NCBI GenBank assembly: GCA_963662615.2
Contig: CAXXSR010000002.1
Span: forward strand, 1 to 64,000
Direction of reading: 5' to 3'
Source: Dehalococcoidia bacterium
GTDB taxonomy: Bacteria > Chloroflexota > Dehalococcoidia > Bin125
DNA: 64,000 nt
Part shown: positions 6,599 to 31,300 of the stretch, piece after piece
Layout of the letters: each line of letters begins with the position of its first letter
Numbering within the stretch: position 1 is the first letter of the stretch
Program-made: the position numbers and the translations under genes
Notes under the pieces: model-generated
What the model was told of the DNA's origin: nothing
The model's input: only the letters and a program-made list of their open reading frames with translations
The model's database searches: none

Positions 6599-6630
6599 GA
6601 CCTCTGCTTGGGAAGCAGCGGGTTAACCGG
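6599..6630 (-). other. Secondary att-like site 1 (CTGC-TTCCCAA-GCAG, tRNA-Gly(CCC)-type anticodon arm) after the recombinase stop
   Basis: Minus strand CCGGTTAACCCGCTGCTTCCCAAGCAGAGGTC; homologous to 18442-18491, 28270-28322 and 31240-31300. Confidence 0.65.
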
Positions 6631-7582
6631 TCCCGTTCGACCTCGCCAGAAACCGCGCCGCGGGGCTGAACGCGGCGTGCGCGTCGGCCGCTTTCGCGGC
6701 ATCGTAGGTGGCGGAATAGCGACGGACCATCGCCGACGTCGAGTGGCCGAGCAGGTATTGCACGTCCAGCTCCCGCGCATGGTTCTCGATGGCCCAGGTA
6801 GCGAACGTATGGCGGAAGCGGTGCGGGTTGGCGTGCACGCCGGCCCGCTCGCCGAGCCGCGCGAACAGGGTGCCCAACAGGTATTTGTTCATCGGGCGCC
6901 GCGACTCCCCCCAGCGTGAGATGGTCAGAAACAACGGTCCCTCGTCCTCGCCGCGGAAGCGGTCGATGTATCCGCGCAGCGCCGCTTCCGGCCCATCGCC
7001 GAACGGCACCACCCGCTGCTTGCGGCCCTTGCCGTGGCGGATGTGGATCCGGCGGTCCTCCCAGGACACGTCGGCCAGGGTGAGCTGGTGCAGCTCCGCG
7101 TAGCGCATCCCGGTGTCGAGGAAGAGCAAGATGATGGCCCGGTTGCGGCAGCCGAACTCGTCGCCGGCATCGCAGACCGCCAGGAGGGCCTGGATGTCCT
7201 CCTCACTGAGCGGCTGGATCACTTTCTGCTCCACGCGCACGTTGGCGATGCCCGTGAAGGGGTGGCGCGCGCAGGCGCCCATGCGCAGGCACCAGGAGAA
7301 GAAGGCGCGGGTCTCGCGGAAGCGGCGGTGCCGGGTGCCCAGCGAGACGCCGCTGTCGGCGACGGCCTTGAGGAACGCGTAGACGTGGGGAGGACGGAAG
7401 TCGGCGACCCGGGCCGGCAGGGCCTCGGCGAGGCAGACGGCCTGGAAGCGGCGCAGGGTCTCGGCGTAGGCGTCGACGGTGCGGGGGCTTTTCCCTTCGA
7501 CATCGCAGGCGGCGAGGTAGGCCGCGATCGCCTCCCCCAGACCCATGCCGTCGTCCGTCTGAAGTACCAGTTCCGCGACCAT
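6623..7582 (-). CDS. Tyrosine recombinase/integrase, copy C (intact)
   Basis: DTGMR, GKGRKQR, HRFRH, LLGH, RRY catalytic motifs; SAM-like N-domain; GAAAGGGG RBS. Confidence 0.95.
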   Translation of the reverse strand: MVAELVLQTDDGMGLGEAIAAYLAACDVEGKSPRTVDAYAETLRRFQAVCLAEALPARVADFRPPHVYAFLKAVADSGVSLGTRHRRFRETRAFFSWCLRMGACARHPFTGIANVRVEQKVIQPLSEEDIQALLAVCDAGDEFGCRNRAIILLFLDTGMRYAELHQLTLADVSWEDRRIHIRHGKGRKQRVVPFGDGPEAALRGYIDRFRGEDEGPLFLTISRWGESRRPMNKYLLGTLFARLGERAGVHANPHRFRHTFATWAIENHARELDVQYLLGHSTSAMVRRYSATYDAAKAADAHAAFSPAARFLARSNGTG

Positions 7583-7724
7583 GATTGCCCCCCTTTCGCC
7601 CATCCATGGACGCTCTGATGGGGGGGTGAAGTCAAGCGAAATCCGGGAGCAGAACCGATGCGGTCCGCTGCTCCAGGCTCGGATTCGGGCCGGATCACAG
7701 CGCGCGCTAATAGATGAAGTGTGG

Positions 7725-7771
7725 TGGTGGGCCCTCAGGGGTTCGAACCCTGGACCTTCGGATTAAAAGTC
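7725..7771 (-). repeat. att repeat: 3' half of tRNA-Lys(UUU)
   Basis: Matches 32188-32234 with one mismatch; identity stops just past the anticodon loop. Confidence 0.95.
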
Positions 7772-7981
7772 TGGTGTTCCGCTCACCGATCTGATCAGTT
7801 CCTCGCTGTCTCCTTCCGGCCACAATCCCGGTCGTCTCGAGACTTCAGCGCGATACGGCGGGCGGGTGTCGACGCCGTGCCGAGGATCGTTCGGTTCGCG
7901 TCGCCAGAGCGTTGAGCAACCTCGGCCCGTGCACGCTACCAGGCCGGGTTCTTCGGTCCGCCCGGCCGCCTTGGCACGTAA

Positions 7982-8097
7982 GTCGGACTCTATGTCGAAC
8001 AGATCTATACGAAACTCAATCCGACCTACGGCTGGCTACGTGGAGTCGAGCTGGTTGCGCTCTGTGCCGGACAGATTTGTCGAATATCCGCTGGCGG
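7982..8097. repeat. Two copies of the 44-bp four-half-site palindrome (7982-8025, degenerate 8054-8097)
   Basis: GTCGGA CTCTAT GTCGAA C AGATCT A TACGAA ACTCAA TCCGAC. Confidence 0.8.
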
Positions 8098-8230
8098 ATC
8101 AATCGCCCGGGCCACTGGCTCGAGCCGCCCGCCGAGGCTAGGGATCGAGCCGCGCCTACGCAGTCCCGCGCCATGCTGCCGCGCCAACACGTGCGCCGAG
8201 TAGCATGGACGTGAGCACGTGGGGGAACCT

Positions 8231-8997
<767 letters not shown>

Positions 8998-11851: not shown

Positions 11852-13246
11852 TCATTCCAGCGAGAAGGGAATCTCCTCCAGCTCCTCTATCGTCCCACCC
11901 GCGAATTGCCAGATGCCAATGAAGCCGCTGGTCACGTCGCCTTCGGGATTCCAGTCCAGCGTGGTCGCGGCGCCTTCGTAGTTGATGTCCTCGCCGTTGC
12001 GGACCGCCGTGAGAGCGGCAGCGATGCCATCAGCACCGGGGATGACTGTCGTGCCCGGCGGGCTCGCGATCTGCACCAGCGCGTCGCGAATGGCCGCCCC
12101 ATCCGTGGAGCCGGCCAGCTCCGCCGCCAGGGCGATGGCGATGACGGCGTCATAGGACTCGCGCACGAACGGCCGCGTGGGCAACTCGCCGAATTCGGCA
12201 ATGTAGGCTTCGTTCCAAGCCGCCGTTGCCTCCGTCTCGGGGCCCCCGGTCGGCGCGGTTCCCTTGAAGCCGTCCAAGAACTCGCCGCCGATCGCGTCGA
12301 TCAGGTCCTGGCTCTTGGTCCCGTCCACAAACAGAAACTGGTCGAAGATGTCGTTCTCCAACGCCTCCCGGACGAAGATGATCGCCTCCGTCGGGAAACC
12401 GATCGCAACCAGGACGGGCGCCCCTTCTCCGGCCACCCGCTGCAACTCCGCCAGGAACGTCACCTGGTCCGGCTCGTACGACGTGCTCGTCACAGTCCCG
12501 CCGTAGCTCGCCTCGAACACCTCCGCCAGCCCCTGCCCGTAGGCGTCGTTGAGGAAGAGCACCGCCACGTTGTCAAAACCCTCGTCCACGGCCAGGTTCG
12601 CCAGCACCGGGCCCTGCGCCCCATCCGAAACCACGCTGCGGAAGAGGAAGCCGGCATCGTTGGCGTTCGACACTGCCGGTGACGTCGCCGAGGGAGAGAT
12701 CGTGGGGATGCCGGCCAACCCTGTGACGCTCTCCGCCACCGCGATCGTGGCCGTGCTCGACAGCGGGCCAACAATGCCGTGCACGCCCGCAATGTCAACG
12801 AGGCGGCGCGCCTCTTCCACGGCGATCGTGGGATCGACCTGCGTATCGCCGGTGACGAACTCGACCGGTTGCCCCAGCACACCGCCGGCGTCGTTGATGT
12901 GCTTAATCGCCAGCTCTACGCCCGTCTGAATCACCGGCCCGAATTCCGCCAGCGGCCCCGAGAAGTCGGCCAGGTAGCCGATCTTGAGCGGCCCGGCGGC
13001 GGCGGGGGCCGGCTCGGGCTCGGGCGCGGGTTCCGGCGCGGGGGCCGGCGCAGGCTCCGGCTCCGGGGCGGGCGCGGGTTCCGGCTGAGCGGCGGCCGCC
13101 GGCGCCACTTCCTCCCCGTCATCGTCGTCACCGCCGCAGGCGGTGGCGACCAAGCCAACCGCGACGATCAGCATTAATCCGAACACCAGCCAGCGGTGGG
13201 AGAAGAAGCGAATCAACTCCGTCATTGCGTTCATCACTGCTCGCAT
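11852..13246 (-). CDS. ABC substrate-binding lipoprotein (LivK/Peripla_BP_6 family) with a Pro-rich linker
   Basis: VATACGGDDD lipobox; LKIGYLADFSGPLAEFG, INDAGGVLG, ISPSATSP. Confidence 0.9.
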   Translation of the reverse strand: MRAVMNAMTELIRFFSHRWLVFGLMLIVAVGLVATACGGDDDDGEEVAPAAAAQPEPAPAPEPEPAPAPAPEPAPEPEPAPAAAGPLKIGYLADFSGPLAEFGPVIQTGVELAIKHINDAGGVLGQPVEFVTGDTQVDPTIAVEEARRLVDIAGVHGIVGPLSSTATIAVAESVTGLAGIPTISPSATSPAVSNANDAGFLFRSVVSDGAQGPVLANLAVDEGFDNVAVLFLNDAYGQGLAEVFEASYGGTVTSTSYEPDQVTFLAELQRVAGEGAPVLVAIGFPTEAIIFVREALENDIFDQFLFVDGTKSQDLIDAIGGEFLDGFKGTAPTGGPETEATAAWNEAYIAEFGELPTRPFVRESYDAVIAIALAAELAGSTDGAAIRDALVQIASPPGTTVIPGADGIAAALTAVRNGEDINYEGAATTLDWNPEGDVTSGFIGIWQFAGGTIEELEEIPFSLE

Positions 13247-13297
13247 CTCCAACTCCCCTCCTGCGCAATTTCGCCGTCGTGAAGGGCGGCATCCGTG

Positions 13298-13317
13298 GGC
13301 CGTAAGAATACACCCGG
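13298..13317 (-). promoter_or_regulatory. Putative promoter shared with the aapJ-like gene
   Basis: CCGGGTGTATTCTTACGGCC (contains -10-like TATTCT) identical to 18391-18410. Confidence 0.55.
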
Positions 13318-13405
13318 GGCGGGGTCAGCGATCGACAGTCCCCCCGCCGCTCAGCCTCCAGATAGGGCCCTCCAGTTCGCGACCTGGATCCCCCGGATAG
13401 ACCCC

Positions 13406-13462
13406 CGCCCGCGGTGTCTTTGCGAAACCCAGGCCGAATGGGGTGAAAGAGGCGTCACGGCT
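13406..13462 (-). other. Degenerate secondary att-like site
   Basis: Plus strand CGAAACCCAGGCCGAATGGGGTGAAAGAGGCGTCACGG aligns by eye, with gaps, to CGAACCCAAGACGATCGGATTGGGAAGCAGGCGATCAACCGG (31259-31300). Confidence 0.35.
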
Positions 13463-13492
13463 GCACGCGAGCACCATTACGCCGACTCCAAA

Positions 13493-13970
13493 GTCCGGTT
13501 CTACGTCGGATAGACCTAGACCATCTAGAGGACGTTATTAGACGCAAACGCGGAGAAAGCGGCTGCGTGGCGGAGGGTGGACGCCGCTGTCCCGGATCGC
13601 CTTGAAGAACCGGACATCCCGTGGGAAGAACGGCGGCTGTGCTGAGGAGGGTGGTAGGTCGGTCACACCTGTTCTGCTCGGCGTCGAGAACAGGACCGTC
13701 CGAGTTCCAATACTGCTCAGTGAGGGTGCCGACCTGGCTCGGTCTGACGACGACAACGCGACCAGTCTCTATCTCAGACAGCCCGCCGCCCAACACCGCG
13801 TCCGATCCTATGTCCGACGGATCTGTCCGAAATTCGATCTGCGGCGGACGCCAGCCCGAGGGCACCCCCCAGCCCTGCTCGCACTCGGCGATCTTGACGG
13901 CCTTCTGGCGAACCGGAGTGCTTCCAATCGAACTCTATGTCGGACTGACTTTCCCGACTTAGAGTCCGAT
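13493..13970. repeat. Three copies of the 44-bp palindrome (13493-13536, 13800-13843, 13927-13970)
   Basis: e.g. ATCGAA CTCTAT GTCGGA C TGACTT T CCCGAC TTAGAG TCCGAT. Confidence 0.78.
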
Positions 13971-14006
13971 CCAGTGTGAAGCGGGTTATCGCCAGGAACA
14001 CGCTCG

Positions 14007-14755
14007 CTAGAGGATCTGCGAGAGGAAGCGCTTGGTGCGCTCTTCTCGCGGGTTGGTAAAAAATGCTCCGGTGTGCCCTCTTCGACGATCTCCCCTTCGT
14101 CGAAGAAGAGGAAGCGGTCGGCCACTTCGCGCGCGAAGCCCATCTCATGCGTGATGACCAACATGGTCATCCCGGACTGCGCCAGCTCGCGCATAACGTC
14201 CAGTACCTCCTTGATCATCTCAGGGTCGAGGGCGCTGGTGGGCTCATCGAAAAGCATGATCTTGGGTCGCATGGCCAAGGCGCGGGCGATGGCGACACGC
14301 TGTTGCTGGCCACCGGAGAGTTGGCTGGGAAACTTGTCGGCCTGCTCGGGAATGCCCACACGCTCGAGTAGTTCATTGGCCAGCGCCTCGGCCTTGGGTC
14401 GCGACATGTGACGGACCTTCTGCGGGCCCAGCGCCACATTGCGCAGGACGGAGAGGTGCGGGAAGAGGTTGAACTGCTGAAACACCATGCCGACCTCTGA
14501 GCGGACCCGCTCCAGGTTGCGGAGGTCGTCGTTGAGTTCAACGCCGTCGACAATGATGCGGCCGGCGTCGTGCTCCTCGAGTCGATTGATGGTGCGGATA
14601 AACGTGGACTTGCCGGATCCGGAGGGGCCAAAAATGACCACGACTTCCCCTTCCACGACGCTTGTGGTGATGCCCTTGAGCGCCTGGAAATCGCCGAACC
14701 ACTTCTCGACCTGTTCGCACTGAATGATGACGGTGCCGTCGTCCGTGGCGTTCAT
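14007..14755 (-). CDS. aapP: Polar amino acid ABC ATPase (AapP/GlnQ-like); 1-bp loss in a T-run near the 3' end
   Basis: [39 protein letters not shown]; adding one T at 14058-14063 restores [18 protein letters not shown]. Confidence 0.88.
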
Positions 14756-14763
14756 GGCGTCAA

Positions 14764-15954
14764 TTATCGCACCCCGATGCCGAGCGCCCGCTCCAGTCGT
14801 TGGCTGAGGCGGGACATGGCGAAGGCGACGCTCCAGAAGGCCAGCGCGATGAAGAGGAGTACCTCCTTCTGCCGACCGATGAAGTCGGCTTGGGCGATGG
14901 CGGCCTGAGCGCCGCCGAGGGCGTCCGTGAAATTCAGAATCGAGAAAAGCGTGGTGTCCTTCCAAAGCGAGATGATCTGGCTGACGAGGGCTGGAATGAC
15001 GGCACGAAGCGCCTGCGGTAGCACGATAAAGACGGTGGTGTTGACCGTGCCCAGCCCAACGGCGTGGGCCGCTTCGATCTGTCCGGGCGGTATCGACTGC
15101 AGTCCGCCGCGCACAATTTCCGCCACGTAGGCGCCGGTGAAGAGGCTGACGATGACGAGGGCGTTGACGATGACGTCGGTGTTGAGTGCGTCGGGCAGGA
15201 ACTCCGGCAGCACGAAGCGGGCGATGAACAACCAGGCGATGAGCGGGCCACCGCGTGTGATTTCGATGATGGCGGTGGCGACACCCTTGAGGGCAGGCAG
15301 AGAGCTGGCGCGGGCGAGGGCGAGCAGGATACCGAGAGGGAGACCGACCGCGATGCCGATGGTGGCCAACATGACGTTCAGCATGAGCCCGCCCCAGAGG
15401 GCCGGTTTGACGCCGCCGAAGGCCACAATGATGAGGACGGTGAAGGGGATTAGAACGGCCCATCCCAGGGCGGCAAGCTTGGCTGCGCGGCTCCGTGAGC
15501 GGTGGTCGCGTCGGACCCACCGCCCCATGCCGTAGGCGAGCGCGGCGGCGGCAGCGGCTCCGCCGAAGAGGCCGCCGTTCTCCCCGTGGGCCAAGAGGGC
15601 GAGGATGAAGACGATGGCGGCGCCCAGCCAGAGCACGTCGCGACGGCTGAGGCGCGCCCAGAGCCCAAAGGAAAATCCCCCCAGGATGAAGGCGAACCAG
15701 AGCGGGGGCCAGAGGCGCCATTCCTCGCTCTGCGGGTAGCGGCCGACGAAGAGCAGGCGCCGGTTGACCTCGACGACCGAGAAGTCGAGATCGAAGAAGT
15801 CTTGCTGAACGAGGAAATAGGCTACGAGGCCGAGCGTGGCAATAGTAGCTACGGTGAGGGTGGTGTTGGGCCGGCTGGAGAAGAGGTTGTCGCGGGCCCA
15901 GAATCGCAGTCGGTGGCCGGCGTCGCGGCTCGCTTGGATGTGCGTCGATTGCAT
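14764..15954 (-). CDS. aapM: General L-amino acid ABC permease (AapM-like)
   Basis: [39 protein letters not shown]. Confidence 0.88.
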
Positions 15955-17148
15955 CTATCGGCCCACCAACTGTACGCGTCGATTAAGAGCGTTCATGACG
16001 ACGGAGACGACGAGGCTGAGCGCCAGGTAGGTTGCAAAAATCAAGATGAAGACAGGGACGGCGTGGCCGATGTTGTTGATAATGGTGGTGCCGACGAACA
16101 CGAGTTCGGGAAAGGCGATGGCGACGGCCAGACTCGAGTTCTTGGTGAGGTTGAGATATTGGTTGGTGAGCGGCGGAATCATGATCCGCAAGGCTTGCGG
16201 CAGAATGATCAGGATCATGCGCTGATAGGCAGAGAGCCCAATAGCCGCGGCGGCCTCCGACTGGCCGCGGGGCAGTGCTTGAATGCTGCCTCGCACGATC
16301 TCGGCGATGAAGGCGCCCGTGTAGAGCACCAGTCCGACGAGGATGGCCGCAAACTCCGGGGTGACCTGGAGGCCACCATCGATGGTGCGGATTCCAAACG
16401 GTGTGACGGAGGTGTGGGGTACGTCAGCGGCGAGCGGGAATCCGGTGGCCAGGAAGCCAACGGCGCCAATGACGGCGAAGAGCAGGAGGGCAACGGGTGT
16501 GGCGTGCAGCGTGCGGCCGGTGGCCTCTTCGCCTCGCAATAGGCGTGCCCGGGCCCACCAGGCGCTGACGGCGCCCACGAAGAGGAAGATCAACCAGATC
16601 CCGAAGGCGCCGTCCGAGTCGACGAAGGGCAAGGCCAAGGCCCGGTTGGAGAAGTAGAGGGCGCCGAACAGGTTGCGGTTTTCGACGATCTCGGGCAGTT
16701 CCAAGAACACTGCGATGTACCAGAACGTGATCTGGACGAGCAACGGGGTGTTGCGGATGGTTTCGACGTAAAGGGACGCGAGACGGGAGAGCAACCAGTT
16801 ACTGGACAGGCGGGCTATGCCTGCCAACACGCCGATTACCGTGGTGAGCACGATTCCGATTAGAACCAAGCGGATTGTGTTGACGATTCCGGTGGTGTAG
16901 GCCGCCAGACGAGAGTCCGTCGCTACGTAGTCGGTGAGCCATTGGTGGGAGATCGAAAAGCCGCCGGGGCCGGAGAGAAAATCGAAGTCGAGCTCGAGGT
17001 CAAGGGCCTGGGCGATGAGGTAGGCGACGACGAGCCCGACGGCCAGTAGAAAGACGGCTTGGAGCAGATAGCGCCGGGTGCGCCGCCGTCGCCAGAGCGC
17101 GGCAGGCGTGAGTGAGCGCGGTTGCAGGCCTTGCGAGAGGACGCTCAT
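15955..17148 (-). CDS. aapQ: General L-amino acid ABC permease (AapQ-like)
   Basis: [40 protein letters not shown]. Confidence 0.88.
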
Positions 17149-17226
17149 TCGACCCGTTCGACGGGCCAGCGGGTCAAGCCGATCGCACCGATCGGCTCGA
17201 CCTCCTTGGCGCTGTGGCGGCTCGCC

Positions 17227-19629: not shown

Positions 19630-19784
19630 TGGTGTTCCGATCATCGATCTGATCAGATCCGTGCTGTCTCCTTCCGGCCAGAATCCCGGTCGTCTCGCGC
19701 AAGACGAGGCCCTGAGGATTCTCCGCGTCGTCCGGCCTCGAATTGTATGAACTCGTCGATGCTCGGTGAAGACGACGATGCGAA

Positions 19785-19919
19785 GTCCGCGTCAATGTTG
19801 GACAGATCTGTCCGACTTAGATTCCGACATGCCGCGGGGCATCAGCGTGCGTCTCCCCACGGAAGTGATCGAGGTCCCGATTTGGATCTTGAACAGTACT
19901 GTCCGACATAGAATCCGAG
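19785..19919. repeat. Two copies of the 44-bp palindrome (19785-19828, 19876-19919)
   Basis: GTTGGA C AGATCT G TCCGAC TTAGAT TCCGAC; CTTGAA C AGTACT G TCCGAC ATAGAA TCCGAG. Confidence 0.8.
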
Positions 19920-20183
19920 ATACTGTCCCGTAACGGACCGAGCCGTCGGCGGCGAGCGCGGATGAATTGCCAACTGCCGTCCGCGATGAAGAGGTTCCGC
20001 TGATCATCGGCGCCGGCGTCGAAGTACACATCATGGCGTCGATGAACCCGATCTTCCTGACGATCTTCATTGTCGTGGTGTGGACTGTCCTGCTGAGCGT
20101 GGTCGCCCACGGCGGCACCTCAACGGGGCCCGAGCGGGCGGCGATGACACCGATCTTGACGGTTCTGGCGGACCTTGCCGATG

Positions 20184-21392: not shown

Positions 21393-21693
21393 CCTTCTCA
21401 GGGCCGTTCATTCCTGCCAAACAGCTGGCGGGGTTCGACGGTGGATACCGGATCGAGCACGTGCCAGCAGTGCGGGAAGCCTCTCGCCGCCGCCGCCGTG
21501 CGGCTGGCCGCGCGCCTGTGCACGGACTGCGGTGGCTCTCTCTACGATCGGCTTAGTGCGCGCGCGCGCGCGGAGGGAGTGGTTGCCCCCCGCCGGTTTC
21601 GTTTCGTCCTCCACCTGCGCGATGCTACGATGCGCCGGACGGCGGCGCCCAGCTCACGCCGGCGCGGTCGCATGCTCGGGGGGGGCAGGGGCG

Positions 21694-23241
21694 ATGTCAG
21701 CGGAATACGACGTCATCATTGTGGGTGCAGGATCATCTGGCGGGGTGCTGGCGGCACGGTTGAGCGAGGACCGCCATCGCAGCGTCCTTCTCCTGGAGGC
21801 GGGCCCCGACTACGCCAATCTGGACGAGAGGCCCGACGATCTGGCCAGCAGCTACTGCCATTCGCTGGAAGCGCACGACTGGAACTTCGAAGGCGAGGCG
21901 TTTCCCGGCCGCATGATCCAGTTGCCGCGCGGGAAAGTCGTCGGCGGCTCTTCGTCCGTCAACGGTTGTATGGCCGTGCGGACTGGTCCCGCCGACTACG
22001 ACGAATGGGCGGCGCTGGGCAACCCAGACTGGTCCTGGAAAGACGTCCTCCCCTACTTCCGCCGCCTGGAGGACGACCAAGATGAGGGCGGCGATTACCA
22101 CGGGCAGGGAGGCCCCATCCCTATCGTGCGCTGGAAAGAGCATGAACTCCTCCCCTTGCACAAGGCCTTCATGACCGCGTGCATCGACCATGGCTACGAG
22201 TACGCGCCGGACCACAACCACCCCGACTCAACCGGCGTCAGCCCTATCGCCATGAATCGGAGTGGCCGTGCCCGTATCGACACCGCGGTGGGCTACCTGG
22301 CGCCGGCGCGCCACCGCCTCAACTTGAGCATCCGCGCCGACTGCCTGGTCAATCGTGTGATCTTCGAAGGGGACCGCGCCGTCGGCCTGGAGGTGGAGTG
22401 CGGCGGCGAAATGCAGACCGTCTCTGGTCGGCAGATCGTGCTCTCCGCGGGCGCGATTCAGACGCCGCCCATCCTCTGGCGCTCTGGTGTGGGGCCCCGG
22501 GCGGAGTTGGAGGCGCTGGGCATACCAGTCCTGGTGGATCTGCCGGGCGTTGGCGCCAACCTGATCGATCATCCCGTGGCGGTGATCCGGTGCCTATACA
22601 AGGAAGGGATCGATGCCAAGGCAGAGGATCCGATCGTTCAGGTCACCCTCCGCTACACGTCGGAAGGGAGCGCCCGAACCAACGACATGCAGCTGCTGTC
22701 GCTCACGTATGCCACCTGGTCAGAGGGGCCGGAGTTAAAGGACGCGTATGGCTGGTTACGGCTCTTCGTCATGGGAGTCATCCTTGAGCATGTGCCCAAC
22801 ACACGCGGCGGCGTCCGTCTTCGCAGCGCTGACTGCCATGAGGCGCCGCTTGTCAGCCTCAATTATGGTGACGACCCGGACGACATGCGCCGCTGGCGAG
22901 AGGGCATGCGGCTCGCCTGGGACATCGTCCACTCGCCGGCGATGAGTGAGGTGATGGAGCGGGTGGTGGGGCTGGACGAGGCCACTCTACGCGATGATGC
23001 GGCGCTGGACGAGTACCTCCGCGCCGAGGCCAACACGGGCAACCATCTGAGCTGCACGTGCAAGATGGGTCCGCCGGACGACCCCAGTGCCGTCGTCGAT
23101 CAGCAGGGGCGTGTCCGCGGGCTGCAAAACCTGCGCGTAGTCGACGCCTCCATTATGCCAGCGATTCCCACTGCGAACACCAACCTCCCCTGCATCATGA
23201 TCGGTGAGCGCATTGCCGATTGGATGCGCGCGTCAATTTGA
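21694..23241 (+). CDS. GMC-family FAD oxidoreductase (choline dehydrogenase/MftG-like)
   Basis: YDVIIVGAGSSG, RGKVVGGSSSVNG, HxxxTCKMG, LRVVDASIMP, NTNLP. Confidence 0.93.
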   Translation: MSAEYDVIIVGAGSSGGVLAARLSEDRHRSVLLLEAGPDYANLDERPDDLASSYCHSLEAHDWNFEGEAFPGRMIQLPRGKVVGGSSSVNGCMAVRTGPADYDEWAALGNPDWSWKDVLPYFRRLEDDQDEGGDYHGQGGPIPIVRWKEHELLPLHKAFMTACIDHGYEYAPDHNHPDSTGVSPIAMNRSGRARIDTAVGYLAPARHRLNLSIRADCLVNRVIFEGDRAVGLEVECGGEMQTVSGRQIVLSAGAIQTPPILWRSGVGPRAELEALGIPVLVDLPGVGANLIDHPVAVIRCLYKEGIDAKAEDPIVQVTLRYTSEGSARTNDMQLLSLTYATWSEGPELKDAYGWLRLFVMGVILEHVPNTRGGVRLRSADCHEAPLVSLNYGDDPDDMRRWREGMRLAWDIVHSPAMSEVMERVVGLDEATLRDDAALDEYLRAEANTGNHLSCTCKMGPPDDPSAVVDQQGRVRGLQNLRVVDASIMPAIPTANTNLPCIMIGERIADWMRASI

Positions 23242-23391
23242 GACCAGAGGGGGGATCTTCCCGCGAGAGCGTGAGGACGCTGTCGTCGGACCGGGCGGGG
23301 TCGCGCAGCCAGACGTGTGAACCTCCGCCGCCAGCGGCCGGCAACGACGGCGCTTTGCGGAGAGTTCCCGAGCGCCAAGGCGTATGGTGAA

Positions 23392-23424
23392 CGGAAGGCC
23401 GGTCTTTATCAGACCGGCCTTCCG
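23392..23424. terminator. Hairpin between convergent GMC and SBP genes
   Basis: CGGAAGGCCGGTCT-TTATC-AGACCGGCCTTCCG followed by CTTTCT. Confidence 0.7.
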
Positions 23425-23450
23425 CTTTCTCAGGCAATCGGCGGCCGAGA

Positions 23451-24989
23451 TCAGGGCAGTTCAATCTCCGGTAGCACTGCCGGGAGACCTGTAAACTGCT
23501 CGTACCATCGGCATTCCATATCTGCTTCTGTCTTCCCAACCCCACCGGCGAAACACAGTTCGAATCCGTGCTCCACGATGTGGCGGTTGTCGAAGTAGAT
23601 CTCGCCGTAGGGACCGTCGTAGCGGATGTCCTCGATGTAGTCGACGAGGACCTCCGTATCGTCCACGGTGCCGGTGTTGACCATGGCCTCCGCGAGGACC
23701 TTGACGTACGGGCCCGTCATGAGCGCGTGCCCGACGATCGCCGAGAAGGTGCCGCCGGAGGCCCGGAACCGATCCCAGTACTCTTGGACGCTGGGCAGCC
23801 CCGAATCCCAACAGGCCATCATGCAGGCGAGTACGGCCTTGCTGTCGTACCCATCCGGGAACGCCTCCCAGAAGTCGACAGGGTCGATCGCCATCAGGAA
23901 GTAGGCGGGGGCCGCGTCGATCTCGGCGCCTATCCGAATCTGCTCATACATATCCTGCGCCAGGTACCAGAGGAAGGCGACATCCGCCCCAATGGCCTTC
24001 AACCGCGTCATGATGGGGGCAAAGTCGGTCGTGCCCGGTGGGTACTTGAGGATGGCTATTGGCTCCCGGCCAACCTCTCGCTCCGCCCACGTCCAGAATG
24101 GCGGGACAGAATCGCCGACGGGATCATCCCGGATCAAGAGCACCGAGGTCTTCGCTTCCGGGACGAAGTCGGACACCCCCTGCGCCAAGATCACGTCCCT
24201 GACGATGTCAGTCGGGTGCACCTTGAAGAGGAAACGCTTGTCGCCACCGGGGGCCACGGACTCCGGGGTGAGGTACGTCTGGTGAACCGTCGAACCGGAG
24301 AACATGATGACGCCCTCCTCGTTCGTGTACTCCTGCGTGAGGACGGAGTAGTCGTCCAGCATGGGACCGATGACGTACTTCACGCCGACGTCCCGAACCA
24401 GCTCGATCGCCGCGGGCACCGCCAGATCCTGTTCGGAGCGGATATCCCGTTCGTAGATTTCGAAGGTGTAGAGCGTGTCGCCCACCATGAAGCCGCCACC
24501 GGGCTCGCAGACTTCGCATTCACCCCGGTTGACCTCGTTAACGGCCATATGCACCGCGTCGTGGGTCGGCACGCCCCAGAGGACCGCGAAGCCGCTCAGC
24601 GACCCGATGAGGCCAAGCTTGAGCACCCCCGTCTTCTGGACGGCCTCCGCCACCGTGGCCCGCTCCTCTGCGGCCCGCGCCTCCGCCGCTGCGGCCCGCG
24701 TCTCCGCTTCTGCGGCCGTCGCGCGCGCCGCGGCCGCCTCAGCCTCGGTCTCCGCCTCTGCCACGGCAGCCTGCGCTGCCTCCGCCTCCGCCCGCGCCGC
24801 CGCGGCCTCCGCCTCGGCGGATTCCGCCGCCGCAGTCGCCGCTGCTACCTCCCCTTGGGCCGCTGCCGTTGCCGCCGCCGCCGCCGGCGCCTCATCGTCG
24901 TCGTCCCCGCAGGCCGCCGCCAGCGCGAGGGCCAAGACGACGAAAATGAGGGAGAGTCCGCGCACTCGTCTAAGTCGAAGGTTCATCAT
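23451..24989 (-). CDS. Orphan ABC substrate-binding lipoprotein (LivK-like) with an Ala/Glu-rich linker
   Basis: LAAACGDDD; LKLGLIGSLSGFAVLWG; YPPGTTDFAPIMTRLKA. Confidence 0.87.
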   Translation of the reverse strand: MMNLRLRRVRGLSLIFVVLALALAAACGDDDDEAPAAAAATAAAQGEVAAATAAAESAEAEAAAARAEAEAAQAAVAEAETEAEAAAARATAAEAETRAAAAEARAAEERATVAEAVQKTGVLKLGLIGSLSGFAVLWGVPTHDAVHMAVNEVNRGECEVCEPGGGFMVGDTLYTFEIYERDIRSEQDLAVPAAIELVRDVGVKYVIGPMLDDYSVLTQEYTNEEGVIMFSGSTVHQTYLTPESVAPGGDKRFLFKVHPTDIVRDVILAQGVSDFVPEAKTSVLLIRDDPVGDSVPPFWTWAEREVGREPIAILKYPPGTTDFAPIMTRLKAIGADVAFLWYLAQDMYEQIRIGAEIDAAPAYFLMAIDPVDFWEAFPDGYDSKAVLACMMACWDSGLPSVQEYWDRFRASGGTFSAIVGHALMTGPYVKVLAEAMVNTGTVDDTEVLVDYIEDIRYDGPYGEIYFDNRHIVEHGFELCFAGGVGKTEADMECRWYEQFTGLPAVLPEIELP

Positions 24990-25735
24990 CTCGCTAATTG
25001 CCTTCCTTCACTTGCACGTTCTTCGTGCATCCTCCCTGCCTCCGAGGAGAATCCCCGCTCATGCACTCTCCCTCCCGCGTCGGGCGGTGAGCACACCCTA
25101 ACTCTTGATGCAACCTGCCCATCCGGGGCTCTGCATAGCAGAACGTCGGGCATTTGGCAACAGCCCCGCCTGGCCGCGGAGATGGAGAGGGTGAGGCACC
25201 TGGGTCCATCTCTCTGTTGGACACCACATGAGGGCCATACCTGGCCCCCACCCGTAAAGCGGCACCGAAGGGGGCAACGCCGTACGGTGCCTACCAGACA
25301 GGGAAGGATGGGGGCCCGTTCAGGTGGCTCATTCGACTTCGGCGCGGCAAAGGCGCGGTAGATCCCAGTTGGCCGACGAGCACTGGTCCCTCTTCGACAG
25401 CGTTGATGCCTCTGTACCGCCATATACCCGCACCCGTGCAGGCGAGACGAGTCGCCGCCGCTTGCCGCGACCGCAACCGCTGCGGGTTCGTGCTCATGCT
25501 GGCGCCGCCGAGCCCAGAGCGGGGCGCCGCGTCGCCCGTAAACGTCATCGCCGTCCCCGGAGGCGCGACGGGCTAGGCCTCCCGCGACCGTGTCCGGTCT
25601 CTCGCCGACGGCTTCCCGCCCGGACAGGCCCGGGCCATGCTGACGGTCCCCGCAATCCCCGCCTGAAATTTCGTTTGGGACTACCATCGTAACCCCGCCA
25701 GTCCGGCCGGTTGCGGCGAGGGATGGAGGGGCGAC

Positions 25736-25984
25736 GTGTTGCCCAAGCGCTGGAATTCGCTCATCCAGGGCATGGGTGGCACGGTCGAGGCGGACTACTG
25801 GGCCTACGGCGCCGATGACTTCGTCTCGATCATCGACTTCCCCGACGGTGCTGCGGCCGTCGCGTGCTCGCTGGCCTTGAGCCGCAGCGGGGCAGTTCAG
25901 CTGACGACGACCCCATTGCTCACCGCCGAGGATATGGAAGCGGCCGCCCAGCGGCTGCCCAACTACCGCGCACCTGGCGCCTAG
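25736..25984 (+). pseudogene. GYD-domain protein, N-terminally truncated
   Basis: MGGTVEADYWAYGADDFVSIIDFPD...TTPLLTAED...YRAPG. Confidence 0.65.
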
Positions 25985-26260
25985 CGCCGCAGCAACCGCT
26001 GAGAACCTGGCCCAGGTGCTGGGAGGAGGAGCCCGCACCCAGTCGAGAGCGATGGAGACGGGTCGAGCCACGTACTGAAAAGCGGCGACGGTGAGGGCGA
26101 CGAAGCGCCGTTCCTTCCGCGAATCGGGCCAGTGCAGGACCGGCGCGGTCCCTTTAACCGCGCCCCTGCCCTGGGAAGGCCTGCGGCTCCGCGCGGGCCG
26201 GCGCCAGCATGGCGGTGGCGACGGCCCGGACAGAGCATTGCGAGCCCGTTTTGGCGGTCG

Positions 26261-28003
26261 CTAGCTCGCCGCTCTGCCGTGCCTCAGCAGCGCGCCGGGG
26301 GTGGCGCCGGTGCACTCACCGTTCTCGAACGTCACCTCGCCGTTCACCAGGGTCCAGCGATAGCCGTCGGCTCGCTGCACGCGCCTCCACTCGCCAGCGG
26401 GGACATCGTGAACGATCACGGAATCGTGCTCCGGCACGCATTTGAGATTGTCGAAGTCGTAGACCACGATATCCGCGGCCATGCCCTCGCGGAGATAGCC
26501 GCGGTCTTTGAACCCGCCCGCGTGGGCCGGCAGGGTGCTCAGGCGATAGTGGGCCTCCTCCAGGGTGAGCTTCTGCGTGTCCCGGACCAGCCAGGTGAGG
26601 AAGTCGGTGGTGTACGCGCCGCCGACGAGGAACTTGGTGTGGGCGCTCCCGTCGGAGATGCCCGGCATCGTGTAGGGCGAGAGCATCAGCTCACCGACCT
26701 TGTCGGGGTCGTTACTCGTCATGTCAGATTTGGTCCGGAATTCGGCCGTGAGGTCGCTCCCCACGGCGATGTCCAGGACGACGTCCAGCGCGTCCTTGCC
26801 CTCCTCCTGCGCGATCTCTTCCGCCATGCGCCCCCAGTACTTCTCCAATTCCGGGTGGTCACCAACGGACTGAACGGTCCACTTAGCAATCGGGCCGCCC
26901 AGCACCTCGTACAGCAGGAGATGTTCTTCGGCCCTCATCTGCGCGCGGAGCTCCGGGTCCGCGAGCTTCTGCATCTTTTCGGCATTCGTGCCTGTCGTTG
27001 CTTTCGCCCACGCGGGGCTGGTGTCGAAGAAATTCCAGTCTTCCATGGTCAGGCGTATCGACTGACGGTGGGTGAAGCCTTGACCGAAGAGAGGCAGGCC
27101 GCGGGAATTGCAGTCCTCCAGCCAGCGCATCTGATCGCGGTGAAACTCGGGGGACGTGTCGAAGGCCGCGACGATGTTGTAGAGAATCGGCCGGCCGCTG
27201 ACCCGGGCAAGCTGCTCCACGAAACGGTAGTCAGTGTTGTCCTCAAGGTTGGCGGCAAAGTCACCGGTTTGTTGGGTGATCTGGATGAGCCCCTGATCAC
27301 GCTCGCGCAGGACCTCACCCATGGCCAGCACGTCTTCGTCCGCCATGACGTCCGTGGGCATGGGCGTGCCGTCGTAGTCCGCCTGCTGTGAATTCTCCCC
27401 TAAGCGCTGGATGGACCAGCCGCAGGCGCCGGCGTCCATGCCCTCCCCCAGCAGCCGCTGTATTTCGCGGCGCTCCTTGTCGGTCGCGGGCCTGCTCTTG
27501 GCTGCCTCCAGGCCCATCACCCAGATCATGAGCGGGGAGAGGGGGACGTAGCTGAGGCAGTTCACGCCCTTGGGGATACGCTCCAGCGAATCGAGGAAAT
27601 CCGGGAACGTGACCCAGTCCCAGAGCATTCCCACCTGCATGGTCTTGAGCGGAATCGCCTCGTTGCGCGACATCATCAGCATGGCGCGCTCGCGCTCGTC
27701 CGGCCGGACCGGCGCAAAGCCGAAGCCGCAGTTCCCCATGGCCACCGAGGTCACCCCGTGCCAGCAAGAGATCGAGCACCAGGGGTCCCACTGGATCTGC
27801 GCGTCGTAGTGGGTATGGAGGTCCACGAAGCCCGGCGCCACGATCAGCCCGCCGGCGTCGAGAACCCGATCGGCGTCGCTGGTCCGGATCCCCCCGACCT
27901 GGGCGATGCGCCCGTCCTTAATCCCGATGTCGGCGCGGTAGCGGGGCACCCGGAGACCGTCGACCACCGTGCCGCCCTTGATCAGCGTGTCGAACTCCGC
28001 CAT
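26261..28003 (-). CDS. N-acyl-D-amino-acid deacylase-family amidohydrolase
   Basis: APGFVDLHTHYDAQ, HGVTSVAMGNCG, SDGSAH, DRGYLREGMAADIVVYD. Confidence 0.9.
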   Translation of the reverse strand: MAEFDTLIKGGTVVDGLRVPRYRADIGIKDGRIAQVGGIRTSDADRVLDAGGLIVAPGFVDLHTHYDAQIQWDPWCSISCWHGVTSVAMGNCGFGFAPVRPDERERAMLMMSRNEAIPLKTMQVGMLWDWVTFPDFLDSLERIPKGVNCLSYVPLSPLMIWVMGLEAAKSRPATDKERREIQRLLGEGMDAGACGWSIQRLGENSQQADYDGTPMPTDVMADEDVLAMGEVLRERDQGLIQITQQTGDFAANLEDNTDYRFVEQLARVSGRPILYNIVAAFDTSPEFHRDQMRWLEDCNSRGLPLFGQGFTHRQSIRLTMEDWNFFDTSPAWAKATTGTNAEKMQKLADPELRAQMRAEEHLLLYEVLGGPIAKWTVQSVGDHPELEKYWGRMAEEIAQEEGKDALDVVLDIAVGSDLTAEFRTKSDMTSNDPDKVGELMLSPYTMPGISDGSAHTKFLVGGAYTTDFLTWLVRDTQKLTLEEAHYRLSTLPAHAGGFKDRGYLREGMAADIVVYDFDNLKCVPEHDSVIVHDVPAGEWRRVQRADGYRWTLVNGEVTFENGECTGATPGALLRHGRAAS

Positions 28004-28269
28004 CTCCTACCCCTCCTCCGTGAACGGTTCAGCGGGCTGCCCGGCCAGCGCGCACGCGGCCCAAGTGTCGGTTCGACCAAACCGGTTTGCTGAACTCTCC
28101 ATGTCGCGGTGGTGACCCTCACAAACAACCGCGAGACCGAGCCATGACGGCATGCTGACGATCACCTCCCAGGCTGTCAAGCACAGCGAAAGCCATTGCA
28201 ACGTCGTGGCGCACCGATCGCCGCGTGATGTTTTTCACTTGACGCCGGACAGCGTCGCGTACAGGTCCA

Positions 28270-28322
28270 GGGAGACGGCTCGAACCCGCGACCGCCTGCT
28301 TGGGAAGCAGGGGATCAACCGG
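28270..28322 (-). other. Secondary att-like site without a recombinase: 3' half of tRNA-Gly(CCC) fused to the recombinase-end motif
   Basis: Minus strand CCGGTTGATCC-CCTGC TTCCCAA GCAGG CGGTC GCGGG TTCGAG CCGT CTCCC (anticodon arm, variable loop, T-arm about 2 nt short). Confidence 0.75.
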
Positions 28323-28510
28323 CAGGCAGTAGTTCAATAGTTAGTAGCGGAGATCCCTCCAGTCGCAGCCTCAGCTGGCGCAGCGCTCGGTATTGCAGCG
28401 CCCGCACCGCGTTCTCACTGCGCTGCATCCGTGCCGCGATCTCCCGGTGGGAACGATCGCCGAAAAAGCGCAGGACGATCACCTCTTGCTGCGTGGGCGT
28501 CTCGAGGCCT
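28315..28510 (-). pseudogene. Sigma-70 region 4 (ECF-type HTH) fragment
   Basis: QQEVIVLRFFGDRSHREIAARMQRSENAVRALQYRALRQLR. Confidence 0.75.
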
Positions 28511-28563
28511 TCGTATCCGCTGCTCTGGCCATGGCCGCACTGTAACCATGCCGTATTGGATCT

Positions 28564-28606
28564 CGGCCAGTACTGTTCTGGACGCGACGCAGAACAGTAC
28601 TGGCCG
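28564..28606. repeat. Perfect 17-bp inverted repeat, each arm containing CAGTACTG
   Basis: CGGCCAGTACTGTTCTG-9 nt-CAGAACAGTACTGGCCG; left context TTGGATCT shared with 19882-19889. Confidence 0.8.
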
Positions 28607-28840
28607 CCGTGCAACCGCGCCTTGAATCGATCTCGAGATCGGAAAGGCTCGGCCGGGGGCTGCTCGGCACGAGGGCGGGCGATCGGCCGTCAAGGTCGAA
28701 CGAAGGCGAGGAATGGTTCCTCCGCCGCGCATCAGAGTCAGCGGCCGGCTCCGAGGACTCCTGAAGCCAGGGATGCCGTGAGATCAAGGCGACAGACGGT
28801 CCGCGACCCACCGTCACGGCGTGCATTGGCACTCCGAGCC

Positions 28841-29086
28841 TCAGCCTCGGAGTGCATCCGTGCGGTCGACGACGCGCCGCCAGACCTGTCTCAATCGCTC
28901 CGGAGCTGAGGTGCGGCGCCGGCCAAACGCCTGCGCGAGATGCTCCGCGGTGGTCATGAGCTGGAGCAGCTCCTCGCGGTCGGGATGGTCAGGGGGGATC
29001 TCCCCCTGCCAGTCCACACCCTCAAGCAGTCGGTCCAGGGCCCGATCGAGGATGGCCTCCGGCTCCTCGGGACGCTGCGCTGTCAT
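28841..29086 (-). CDS. Small protein resembling an anti-sigma-factor N-terminal domain
   Basis: ILDRALDRLLEG...HPDREELLQLMTTAEHL...RLRQVWRRV, directly downstream of a sigma-4 ORF. Confidence 0.5.
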   Translation of the reverse strand: MTAQRPEEPEAILDRALDRLLEGVDWQGEIPPDHPDREELLQLMTTAEHLAQAFGRRRTSAPERLRQVWRRVVDRTDALRG

Positions 29087-29161
29087 GGCACCCCTGCGTG
29101 ACGGGATCCGCGCGGTTCGCTTCGGAGTGCCGATGAGGGCAGCGGCAATCCGGCAGCCCGC

Positions 29162-29530
29162 TCAATCCGTCGTCGGTGGCGGCGGCGATGGCGAGTTGAG
29201 GACGGCATGCAACCGCCGGAGCGCTTCCCCCTGGAGGTGACGGAGGGTTGGGCCGTCGCACCCGAGGGCGCGCGCCGTGTCGGCGCTCGACCGCCCCTTA
29301 TGGAGGCGCAGGAACAGCACCTGCTGTTCGACCGCGGGAAGCTGCGCGATGGCGGCGGTGAGCGCAGTCGGCTCGAAGCTCTTGGCGGTCCGCAGCAGGG
29401 GCGGCGTGGCCGCCCGCGAGCGCCTCCGGGGGGCCAGTCTGCGCGCGTAGCGGTGTGCCACTGCGAGACGCAACATCCTGACAGTCATGCGCCATTCCTC
29501 CGACCAGCACAGCCATGCAGATCGTGCCAT
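29162..29530 (-). CDS. Sigma-70 region 4-only protein
   Basis: LTAAIAQLPAVEQQVLFLRLHKGRSSADTARALG...LQGEALRRL. Confidence 0.7.
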   Translation of the reverse strand: MARSAWLCWSEEWRMTVRMLRLAVAHRYARRLAPRRRSRAATPPLLRTAKSFEPTALTAAIAQLPAVEQQVLFLRLHKGRSSADTARALGCDGPTLRHLQGEALRRLHAVLNSPSPPPPTTD

Positions 29531-29757
29531 GCACCATCGCGGAACGCGTCACCAGTTCGCAAGTCCCAGACGAACGTTTCTCCGGAGGTCGAATTGACAT
29601 AGCGGCTGCCGCGTCGGGGCACTGGCGGCGCTGCGGGCGAGCTCCTCGGCACGTTCGTCATCTGAGGAGCCGGTCACCCTGAGCCTGCGCGTCTTCGACG
29701 GGGCAGGTCCAGTTCTGAATCTGGCGATTAAGTAATACGATCATGAACCATTGACGG

Positions 29758-30321
29758 GTGCGCCTTTCCAGAACAGGCACCGTCACGTCGGCGCCTCCGC
29801 GAGGTCTATCGGCATCGGGTTCCAGTGCGAGCATCAGCGAGGGCGAGGGACCGCCCGTGCAATTGACGTGGGACCGTCACCCCTACCGCGTCGGCGACGT
29901 CGATGGCCTCGCCGTCTTCTACTCTTGGGCCAGCAATCAAGAGGCGGTGGTGGGGCGATCGTTCGACCTGATGCCCGATGACGTCGACCGCATGTTGCGT
30001 GACGGCTCCTTTCGCCTGGCCCGCATGGTGGAAGTCGCAGCCGGCCCGACGCCGTTCGTCGGCGAGTTCGAACCGTTCCTCGGCAAGCGGCAGCTCATCG
30101 GATTGGAGCGAGTCCTGGCGACTCGGCCAGAGCCCTCTGTGGGCGCCGGCGCCGTGTGGCGCCGAGTCCTAGCGACGGCGTTCGGGAGCGGGACAGGTCT
30201 CCGCCCGTCCGCCGGCGATGCCACACCCGAGGGTGGGGATCCCACCGACCACCCCCGCCACGGCGCCCGCCGGCGATTCCCAGACGTGAGATGGCGCACG
30301 CGATCGTCGTTGGGGGTGTAG
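29758..30321 (+). CDS. Hypothetical protein (start uncertain)
   Basis: Protein-like central segment PPVQLTWDRHPYRVGDVDGLAVFYSW; no family recognised. Confidence 0.35.
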   Translation: MRLSRTGTVTSAPPRGLSASGSSASISEGEGPPVQLTWDRHPYRVGDVDGLAVFYSWASNQEAVVGRSFDLMPDDVDRMLRDGSFRLARMVEVAAGPTPFVGEFEPFLGKRQLIGLERVLATRPEPSVGAGAVWRRVLATAFGSGTGLRPSAGDATPEGGDPTDHPRHGARRRFPDVRWRTRSSLGV

Positions 30322-30810
30322 CCATGGCGAATGCCGTCCCGAAAGCGTCCGTGCGGCCGCGCAGTCGTCCCCGCAGCGCTCTCCGTGACAATGAGAAGGC
30401 GCTGCTGCACCGCGCTGGCGCGGGAGCCGCGCTCCTCCTCCTTGCCGTCGTTATCGGGCTCGTCTGCGTGCAGCCCCGGGGTGGCGAACGACGCGCCACA
30501 AGGAGTCGAGGCCGTCCGCCCGTTTCCCGACCGCGATCTGTTCTGGAGATGCCCACATGTCCTGCCTCACTCCGAATCGAATCGTCACCCCAGAGGGTGG
30601 TCGCCAAATCGCAGCGCCTCCAGGCGCTCCACCGCCTCCGGCGGACGCTACGCCGGGAGAATGGATGCGCGTGATGCGCCGACGCAGGACCGGCACGGCC
30701 GTCCATGGTGCCCATCCGATCCCGTGATTGCTTGCGGGGCCGCGGCCGGACGAGCGTGCTGATTCGACGAAGATTCCAAGTGGGTTGTGATCCGCAATCA
30801 GCAGGGGGTC

Positions 30811-31077
30811 TCAATCGCTCTCACGGCTCGCAAGCGACTGGCGAAGCAACCGCATACCTGAGCGCTGAAAGCGCTAAACCTCGGCCACTGACCTATCGAG
30901 CCGTTTCGCAATTTCCGTACTTGAGAGGCCCTGCACGATTCGCAAGGTGACAACCTCCCGCTCCGGGGAAGGCAGGTTGAGGAGGAATGTCCGCACGAAA
31001 TAGTCGCTCTGCATGTCACCGACCGGCGGAAGGGCGTCTCTGCCCTGATCATCGGATTCCGCCTTCGCCGGCTTCAT
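30811..31077 (-). pseudogene. Sigma-70 region 4-only ORF with an in-frame TAG at 30874-30876
   Basis: LLNLPSPEREVVTLRIVQGLSSTEIAKRLDRSVAEV*RFQRSGMRLLRQSL. Confidence 0.7.
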
Positions 31078-31239
31078 AGGGGTTTCCCTGAGATTCGCGA
31101 CGCGCCAACTGGTCGATAATCGGACGCGCCAGCCGCCAGTGGTCCATATGGCATACTGTCCGTCGGAAACTGCGTCCTAAATTGAACTCTCCGTCGGATT
31201 CGCAGGCGGAAACCTATCCGGATTATCGGGGTTTGTTGG

Positions 31240-31300
31240 GGGTGCGCCCCACAGAGTTCGAACCCAAGACGATCGGATTGGGAAGCAGGCGATCAACCGG
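31240..31300 (-). other. Secondary att-like site 3: TTCCCAA plus a degenerate tRNA 3' half, after the recombinase stop
   Basis: Minus strand CCTGC TTCCCAA TCCGA TCGTC TTGGG TTCGAAC TCTGT GGGGCGC ACC; gap-free 45-nt alignment with the tRNA-Lys 3' half. Confidence 0.75.

Follow-up and report, generated by a model that had tools for sequence, protein, structure and literature searches.

What is the short tRNA-like sequence that follows the stop codons of three related integrase genes in a Dehalococcoidia genome, and why does it also occur where there is no integrase? The stretch that raises this question, here called the window, comprises the first 64,000 nucleotides (nt) of contig CAXXSR010000002.1 (assembly GCA_963662615.2). 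It is the start of contig C2 of the source genome, G000, which measures 2.66 Mb in two contigs (C1 and C2) at 68% G+C; positions without a contig prefix refer to the window. A first-pass annotation, made from the sequence letters, had read the recurring sequence as part of an integron-like system in which cargo is stacked beside a recombinase. We hold, with moderate confidence, that the locus is best explained by the site-specific accretion and subsequent decay of islands with two kinds of tRNA-derived core, one of Lys type and one of Gly type.

The window belongs to a tandem array of no fewer than five islands, inserted serially into the anticodon loop of tRNA-Lys(TTT). The array is headed by the intact tRNA gene (32188-32263, minus strand; ARAGORN, 73.6 bits with the Rfam tRNA model), which forms an attL-type junction and is the sole lysine tRNA gene of the genome with a TTT anticodon according to ARAGORN. 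Identity with the downstream repeats starts in its anticodon loop, at position 32232, and exact or near-exact 45-nt repeats of the tRNA 3' part, beginning with CTTTTAA, are found at 32232, 19627, 7769, C1:1997986 and C1:1988277. Each repeat leads into a homologous 140-nt arm and then an integrase gene, such that a tyrosine integrase stands beside the attachment (att) junction in all five units. A left arm of about 65 nt is common to three of the repeats. Together with the 45-nt repeat, this kept arm makes up attP-like junctions on the minus strand between units C and B (19583-19697, repeat at 19583-19627), where Rfam reports a partial tRNA match at 19594-19650, and between units B and A (7725-7839, repeat at 7725-7769). 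The anticodon loop is said to be one of the sublocation classes of integration that Williams described in 2002.

Comparison with other genomes places the boundaries at the same core. Homology of unit A with five loci (L001, L002, L004, L006 and L037) stops in every case at 7769-7782, and a match of 3,337 nt at 98.9% identity to G009, a genome of another genus, begins exactly at the Lys core. It is the tRNA-Lys repeats that mark the island boundaries consistently. Positions 1-6678 are identical to the final 6,678 bases of C1 in a direct DNA comparison, so the array runs on into C1, where two further integrase units occupy 1996865-1997986 and 1987155-1988277. This overlap stops 55 nt within integrase A, and the two contigs probably join here, with the assembly broken at the integrase repeat; between the end of C2 and the start of C1 there is no overlap.

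All three integrases of the window lie on the minus strand and were identified by the Pfam Phage_integrase family and by alignment. Integrases A (6623-7603, 326 residues) and B (18484-19446, 320 residues) are full length, whereas integrase C (31293-32048) is a Xer-like tyrosine recombinase with an internal deletion. With two more full-length copies on C1 (1996865-1997815 and 1987155-1988105), the array holds five integrases, four intact in length and one deleted, each about 140 nt past a Lys repeat. The proteins A, B and C are mutually 82-83% identical, and the DNA of A and B is 81% identical over 1,237 nt. Integrase A is identical to a copy in G009, and integrase B is 99% identical to C1:1987152-1988096 through the first 315 of its 320 residues. 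In integrase C, 68 residues including the catalytic HxxR and tyrosine region are deleted in the alignment, and the Pfam match spans only profile positions 3-118 of 172, so that the protein is probably inactive.

Two domains make up these integrases, a SAM-like core-binding one and a catalytic one, preceded by about 20 residues. This leaves no space for an arm-binding domain and makes short, simple sites plausible. Their best profiles are XerC, XerD and XerA, each under its own cut-off. On the integron integrase profile TIGR02249 they reach 64.9 bits, far short of its cut-off of 265, and they align with positions 15-179 only.

The sequence behind the integrases is positioned precisely. As the first-pass annotation had noted, a conserved site adjoins the stop of all three recombinases: the stop codons (TGA or TAA) of A, B and C fall within the CCGGTTGA/CCGGTTAA/CCAGTTGA word, and the 7-nt loop begins 8 nt past the stop. 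The degenerate consensus CCRGTTRA-N4-CTKC-KTCCCAA has four minus-strand matches in the window, with none expected from 100 shuffles; since the consensus derives from the sites themselves, independence from integrase paralogy can be claimed only for site D, where no integrase is present. An 11-nt core with at most one mismatch occurs three times in the window, against 0.84 expected. The four matches coincide with the places named at the outset, 6608, 18469 (diverged), 28300 and 31278, all on the minus strand. Core A (6608-6630) is followed by GCAGAGG, which completes the stem, and by a right flank of about 80 nt that is conserved with locus L037, the whole spanning 6525-6630. Core B (18469-18491) is diverged at three positions, and its right arm begins with a Lys-like TCCGA. 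Core C (31278-31300) contains the integrase stop codon. Site D (28270-28322, core 28300-28322), supported by the consensus match and by tRNA alignment, consists of a left arm of about 19-26 nt resembling an integrase tail, the loop, and a 3' half like that of tRNA-Gly(CCC). Cores C and D are identical at 22 of 23 nt.

Beyond the loop on the right, the sites diverge in kind. The right arm of site D finds its best match in the 3' half of tRNA-Gly(CCC), with 26 of 32 alignment columns identical. That of site C (31241-31277) is a decayed 3' half of tRNA-Lys(TTT), the best of 48 genome tRNAs, at 29 of 38 columns. With a Gly-type left arm and loop and a Lys-type right arm, site C is a Gly/Lys hybrid, as the annotation had supposed such sites to be. 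It had also expected a tRNA 3' half after each core; this is true of C and D, weakly so of B, and untrue of A, where only GCAGAGG is kept. A degenerate site proposed at 13406-13462 proved to be background, since 45% of 12,786 80-nt window tiles equal or exceed its score against site D and 94% of them do so against tRNA-Gly. Searching positions 1-34000 with the Rfam tRNA model at E<=10 returned only the intact tRNA-Lys gene and two tRNA-Lys halves, and no Gly-like site was reported.

The same consensus identifies the source of the core. Allowing up to two mismatches, it matches in 15 of 65 family genomes (the pattern read backwards gave 6 control hits). In 10 of these 15 the sole match is the tRNA-Gly(CCC) gene called by ARAGORN, and the corresponding gene of G000 itself (C1:218950-219024) is matched as well. 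The site thus reproduces the D-loop-to-anticodon-loop part of tRNA-Gly(CCC); where the D-loop would lie, the integrase gene has its stop codon. The earlier assignment of the core to tRNA-Gly(CCC) rather than to the Lys loop was correct. Copies outside tRNA genes are restricted to G000, G009, G004 and G010, plus one hit in G056. We rejected a whole-tRNA pseudogene: the 29 nt further left are unlike tRNA-Gly positions 1-14, and in this comparison none of nine sites fell below 113 of 500 shuffles. A metagenome scan with the exact consensus found 12 stretches in unrelated contexts, at 47-66% G+C and with no integrase homologue by tblastn, and was uninformative.

To place the core in its family context, we collected 163 homologous stretches, kept 79 loci, and built a tree from 70 of these plus the five G000 copies; nine loci were dropped because of stop codons or short matches (L005, L031, L032, L037, L046, L052, L054, L071 and L077). 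tRNA halves were detected in the 75 rows by regular expression. A tRNA-Gly(CCC) 3' half lies 85-254 nt downstream of the integrase, on the same strand, in 15 rows, a tRNA-Lys(TTT) half in 6 and a tRNA-Gly(TCC) half in 2, all lower bounds and possibly biased given the 40 rows in which no half was detected on either side of the gene. These counts make an att site just downstream of the integrase a common arrangement, most often derived from tRNA-Gly(CCC). In G009, the integrase has an intact tRNA-Lys gene before it and, behind it, the core running on into a complete tRNA-Gly 3' half. Taken with the tRNA-Gly copy described above, the 15 homologues indicate that the core is the Xer-like integrase lineage's own attachment core.

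In the clade of the window (9 rows, SH-aLRT 98), tRNA-Lys is always upstream, and the lineage of the window combines the Gly core at one end of the gene with a tRNA-Lys site at the opposite end. The core extends beyond this clade to L042, an integrase only 47% identical with tRNA-Met upstream, where it directly follows the stop codon. It is missing after the stop in three of the nine treed integrases of the clade (L002, L003 and L004) and in the copy at C1:1987155. Along with the 15 of 75 homologues in which an ordinary displaced tRNA-Gly 3' half takes this position, these four absences count against an integron-like system. A paralogous integrase, 49% identical, is found at C1:917337-918218 (minus strand) within C1:904385-918218. 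A full tRNA-Gly 3' half lies about 220 nt after it and a second half 13 kb further on, with no intact tRNA-Gly gene near this paralogue.

Reassortment of arms around the loop suggests that the Gly-type cores have been real crossover points. We compiled 22 Gly-core places in G000, one of them the real tRNA gene, which cluster at C1:60-219 kb, around that gene, and in the tRNA-Lys array. On the left they carry either an integrase 3' end, from 19 to about 230 nt long, or, at two sites, an unrelated 286-nt arm. On the right stands half of a tRNA-Gly, a tRNA-Lys-like half or another arm shared between sites. One right arm pairs with different left arms, and vice versa, and one right arm of G000 recurs behind an integrase tail in G009. 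Besides site D, at least three other cores have no integrase (C1:94635, C1:90635 and C1:1981762).

Three further places show the cores associated with inserted or stacked DNA. On contig C4 of G009, a two-gene segment of 2.1 kb lies between 117-nt repeats, 94% identical, that consist of an integrase tail plus core. At C1:1996819, the core is followed by about 870 nt with one methyltransferase-like open reading frame (ORF) and then by a loop-less tRNA-Gly 3' half. This half fits the T arm and acceptor strand of the host tRNA, and neither its first base nor its final CCA. At L119 (G009:C3, 7900-8300), one integrase is directly preceded by a stack of three tRNA-derived pieces. One is a nearly complete copy of tRNA-Gly and another a tRNA-Gly 3' half that lacks the loop; the third, a Lys-type site whose loop reads CTTTAAA and whose left arm is Gly-like, is again a hybrid. 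We infer that the integrases themselves catalysed such joints, and the timing likewise; read from sequence, use of the Gly cores would concern past events and not present-day activity.

The region around the real tRNA-Gly gene, C1:60000-219100, is a second hot spot. It contains the gene itself (218950-219024, minus strand), a displaced half at 189127 (minus strand), and at least 12 Gly-core sites with integrase 3' fragments, mostly on the opposite strand, suggesting inversions between cores.

In the explanation that we favor, islands would have inserted serially at the anticodon loop of the genome's one tRNA-Lys(TTT) gene, and the sequence after the integrase stop would be a second attachment core of the same integrase lineage. 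This Gly core, which in some copies extends through the whole tRNA 3' half, would correspond to the integrase-proximal att junction of many relatives residing at tRNA-Gly(CCC). The Gly-type cores may have recombined, at least formerly, with other Gly-type and occasionally Lys-type sites. Extra DNA would thereby have been added or swapped directly behind the integrase, giving rise to hybrid sites and integrase-less segments.

Several observations weigh against this explanation. The 6,678-nt overlap of C1 and C2 ends within a repeated integrase and could be a true duplication instead. In 40 of the 75 rows no tRNA half was detected, which makes the family counts lower bounds and possibly biased. 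The clade of the window is not nested in the clade with downstream tRNA-Gly halves; an unrooted tree places them in its opposite halves, which makes inheritance from a Gly-targeting ancestor something we infer. Several independent breakpoints, including two internal deletions (integrase C and C1:60742), fall 31-42 nt left of the loop. Surviving integrase fragments are C-terminal only, none covering residues 1-200, and the DNA word CCGGYTRA is kept while the codons and residues of the tail vary. The fragments and breakpoints hint at something beyond simple decay, with integrase tail plus core kept for a reason, and the kept word hints at a constraint at the DNA level. Together, these last three observations keep alive the reading that the site is active, at a low probability.

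That reading is the model of the first-pass annotation, in which the Gly core is a working attI-like landing pad and integrase-less cargo is stacked there in modules. We regard it as unlikely, although a number of arrangements speak for it. Cores C and D flank an integrase-less segment of 2,955 bp (28323-31277, minus strand, delimited by core matches) that encodes a sigma-70 region-4 protein and, by Pfam, ORFs without an assigned family. The order of integrase, core and full tRNA-Gly 3' half in G009 would represent the unfilled state, and the two-gene segment on G009:C4 and the single gene between core and tRNA-Gly half at C1:1996819 also speak for the model. The integrase-less sites keep just 19-40 nt beside the loop, which is what a simple Xer-type site would need, and one Lys-like right arm is shared by C, B, C1:1981762 and G009:C4. 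In addition, contigs of three public runs carry an integrase-tail allele joined to a D-type site.

The breakpoints and the cargo map are less accommodating. When copy A is compared with eight other integrase copies, homology ends at 4441, 6525, 6601, 6608, 6645 (twice), 6648 and 6654. Copy B and its near-duplicate C1:1987165-1988342, which share 98% identity across 1,178 nt with the Lys junction included, part at 18515, about 40 nt left of the Gly loop, with complete divergence beyond. Homology thus ends at the Gly core in only two of nine comparisons. Of the four modules into which the cargo had been divided, only the C-D segment is bounded by two Gly cores; the boundaries at about 19630 and 7772 are tRNA-Lys repeats, and at about 13445 there is no site, the copy at 13406-13462 not being real. 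The C-D segment itself was not found by DNA search in any of 64 family relatives, where matches were at chance level (23-68 nt), and its G+C content of 0.663 does not set it apart from its neighbors (0.654-0.68). Furthermore, core B is degenerate, integrase C is broken, the methyltransferase insert has a right junction without the loop, and four integrases, as listed above, have no Gly core after their stop. The site does behave as a recombination joint, with conserved left arms and varying right arms; the integron-like stacking is not supported.

Integrons carry attI beside the 5' end of intI, and their cassettes are mostly single promoterless ORFs in one orientation, each ending in attC, an imperfect single-strand hairpin. 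The likeness to the window lies in a recombinase gene with an adjoining site and extra genes accumulating behind it. The differences are more extensive: the integrase is Xer-like, as its profile scores indicate, and the site adjoins the 3' end of the gene rather than a divergent promoter. Against 200 shuffles, none of the four sites shows a significant single-strand fold (DNA fold z-scores -1.0, +0.3, -1.4 and +0.6), nor is there a folded attC-like structure. The cargo consists of whole operons on both strands rather than single-ORF cassettes, including Liv-type and polar amino-acid ATP-binding cassette (ABC) operons, a GMC oxidoreductase, an amidohydrolase and binding proteins. The integron analogy does not hold.

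Assembled contigs of public runs were also examined for joints. Among the joints listed, none is a clean core-to-core joint, and rare excision products are invisible in contigs. A joint of 28317 to 31302 with 7 other letters between, seen in three of four runs, was considered as an excision product and rejected: it is another allele, absent from G000, with an integrase tail joined to a D-type site. Joints of 28310 and 28308 to 32239 resemble the real tRNA-Gly gene of another organism, and joints 18681-31466 and 12985-18212 link paralogous or repeated stretches. Taken together, these joints speak neither for activity nor against it.

A quite improbable variant would assign a function to both cores. 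Here, the integrase would be bracketed by two heterospecific simple sites with similar half-sites, one with a Lys overlap of 7 nt (CTTTTAA) and one with a Gly overlap of 7 nt (TTCCCAA). The element could then dock at either tRNA gene and exchange whatever cargo separates a Gly core from the next Lys core by double reciprocal recombination.

At the other extreme, the Gly-like word might be a passive relic, kept by paralogy that extends a few bases beyond the stop codon, and never recombined in this lineage. The site is indeed about as diverged as the genes, with 81% DNA identity between A and B and three changes in 19 specified positions of B, and the silence of Rfam at the Gly sites would fit. 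We nonetheless consider a relic very improbable, given site D and the other cores without integrase, the arms reassorted within G000 and between G000 and G009, the existence of Gly/Lys hybrid sites, and the retention of the core by L042 at only 47% identity. We also rejected a role as transcription terminator or as regulatory hairpin for the integrase gene, suggested by a position 4 nt past the stop and a possible 4-6-bp stem in A and D, as the fold energies given above are ordinary, the right stem strand is replaced in C and B with no T run after it, and the sequence is a tRNA-Gly anticodon arm.

Island accretion with two kinds of core, the explanation that we prefer, has close relatives among described systems, and the claim that the arrangement belongs to no described kind does not hold: site-specific accretion of integrase-less islands already appears in PMC5704250, PMC3146451 and bioRxiv 10.1101/2020.12.28.424599. 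The first two of these report elements of the integrative and conjugative (ICE) and integrative and mobilizable (IME) families that lack an integrase and keep att sites, with new DNA entering the att sites of residents. The window resembles such cis-mobilizable elements (CIMEs) and their accretion in that the integrase is lost and att sites are kept: recombinase-less segments with att repeats lie beside a recombinase-bearing element at 28323-31277 and on G009:C4. It differs from what is described there (PMC5704250, PMC3146451) in that accretion takes place at a core lying within the 3' end of the integrase gene itself. Genes for conjugation or mobilization were not identified in these islands.

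Tandem islands of the Islander/TIGER kind (PMC4383910) share the tyrosine integrase, the intact tRNA with displaced 3' repeats, and the serial arrangement. Identity that starts at the anticodon loop is a further likeness, in line with the sublocation class that Williams is said to have described. Set against that description (PMC4383910), the window is distinguished by integrases bracketed by Lys and Gly cores and by hybrid joints. The tycheposons of Prochlorococcus, as portrayed in bioRxiv 10.1101/2020.12.28.424599, use tyrosine recombinases that target tRNA genes and carry nutrient-uptake cargo. Their serial integrations push older elements inward and leave fragmented integrases and scattered partial tRNAs behind (same source). 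By this description they resemble the window in tRNA target, cargo, serial integration and debris; they belong to a different phylum, and no primase or helicase of a tycheposon-like replication module was noted among the window ORFs in general scans.

Within the same class as the window, the ssrA islands of Dehalococcoides are also tandem, at a small-RNA gene, and many have no integration module, according to PMC3146451. Their integration module includes a conserved 76-bp tRNA-Gly-like locus for which no role is given (PMC3146451). In the same account the islands differ from ours in using a serine recombinase and in having the tRNA-Gly-like locus within another gene, about 4.4 kb from attL. 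By analogy, this locus may parallel the tRNA-Gly-like sequences on the mobile elements of this class. Mycobacteriophages with tRNA-dependent lysogeny have an att core at the anticodon region of a tRNA that is not long enough to restore the gene (PMC10865867). This recalls site A, to which tRNA-Gly contributes only about 18-20 nt, with the difference that such a phage brings a replacement tRNA gene (PMC10865867); ARAGORN found none in the window islands.

One integrase module with cores from two tRNAs, together with Gly/Lys hybrids, is unusual. A literature search within a limited library, not aimed squarely at the two-tRNA-core arrangement, returned no description of such a module or of Gly/Lys hybrids. 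As the evidence stands, what is documented is mostly ordinary island accretion. If the Gly cores are fossils, they record an integrase lineage with cores from two tRNAs and bear on how tRNA target specificity shifts. If they are still used, this would explain the reshuffling of nutrient-uptake operons behind a constant integrase module in Dehalococcoidia, which to our knowledge are without most classical gene-transfer machinery. The bracketing by two sites, if true, would be a natural counterpart of recombinase-mediated cassette exchange, with integrase-tail-plus-core remnants as portable cargo ends. Were the cores still in use, such a compact Xer-like recombinase, with two short sites that do not cross-react, might also prove useful as a genetic tool.

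Several repeats and duplicated genes accompany the array. Of the cargo genes at 21590-23381 and 26214-28003, both with close paralogues outside the window, the GMC oxidoreductase is 96.7% identical to C1:177308-179099, within the tRNA-Gly hot spot, and the amidohydrolase is 90% identical to C1:1808637-1810430, with three more copies at 73-83%. A 63-nt repeat occurs at 28544-28606, C1:1991398-1991460 and C1:112233-112295, with an inverted partial copy in the window, and one of its copies abuts an integrase fragment at C1:112296. Nearby, a 147-nt repeat (28355-28501) matches C2:103089-103235 at 94%. Within the part shared with the end of C1, an insertion-sequence-type transposase with rve_3/rve domains (2796-3824, minus strand) has paralogues on C1 at 69-73% identity. 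On one side of it lies a 189-nt direct repeat, 99.5% identical, at 542-730 and 2587-2775, and a tandem-repeat block with copies 87-95% identical occupies 1438-2004.

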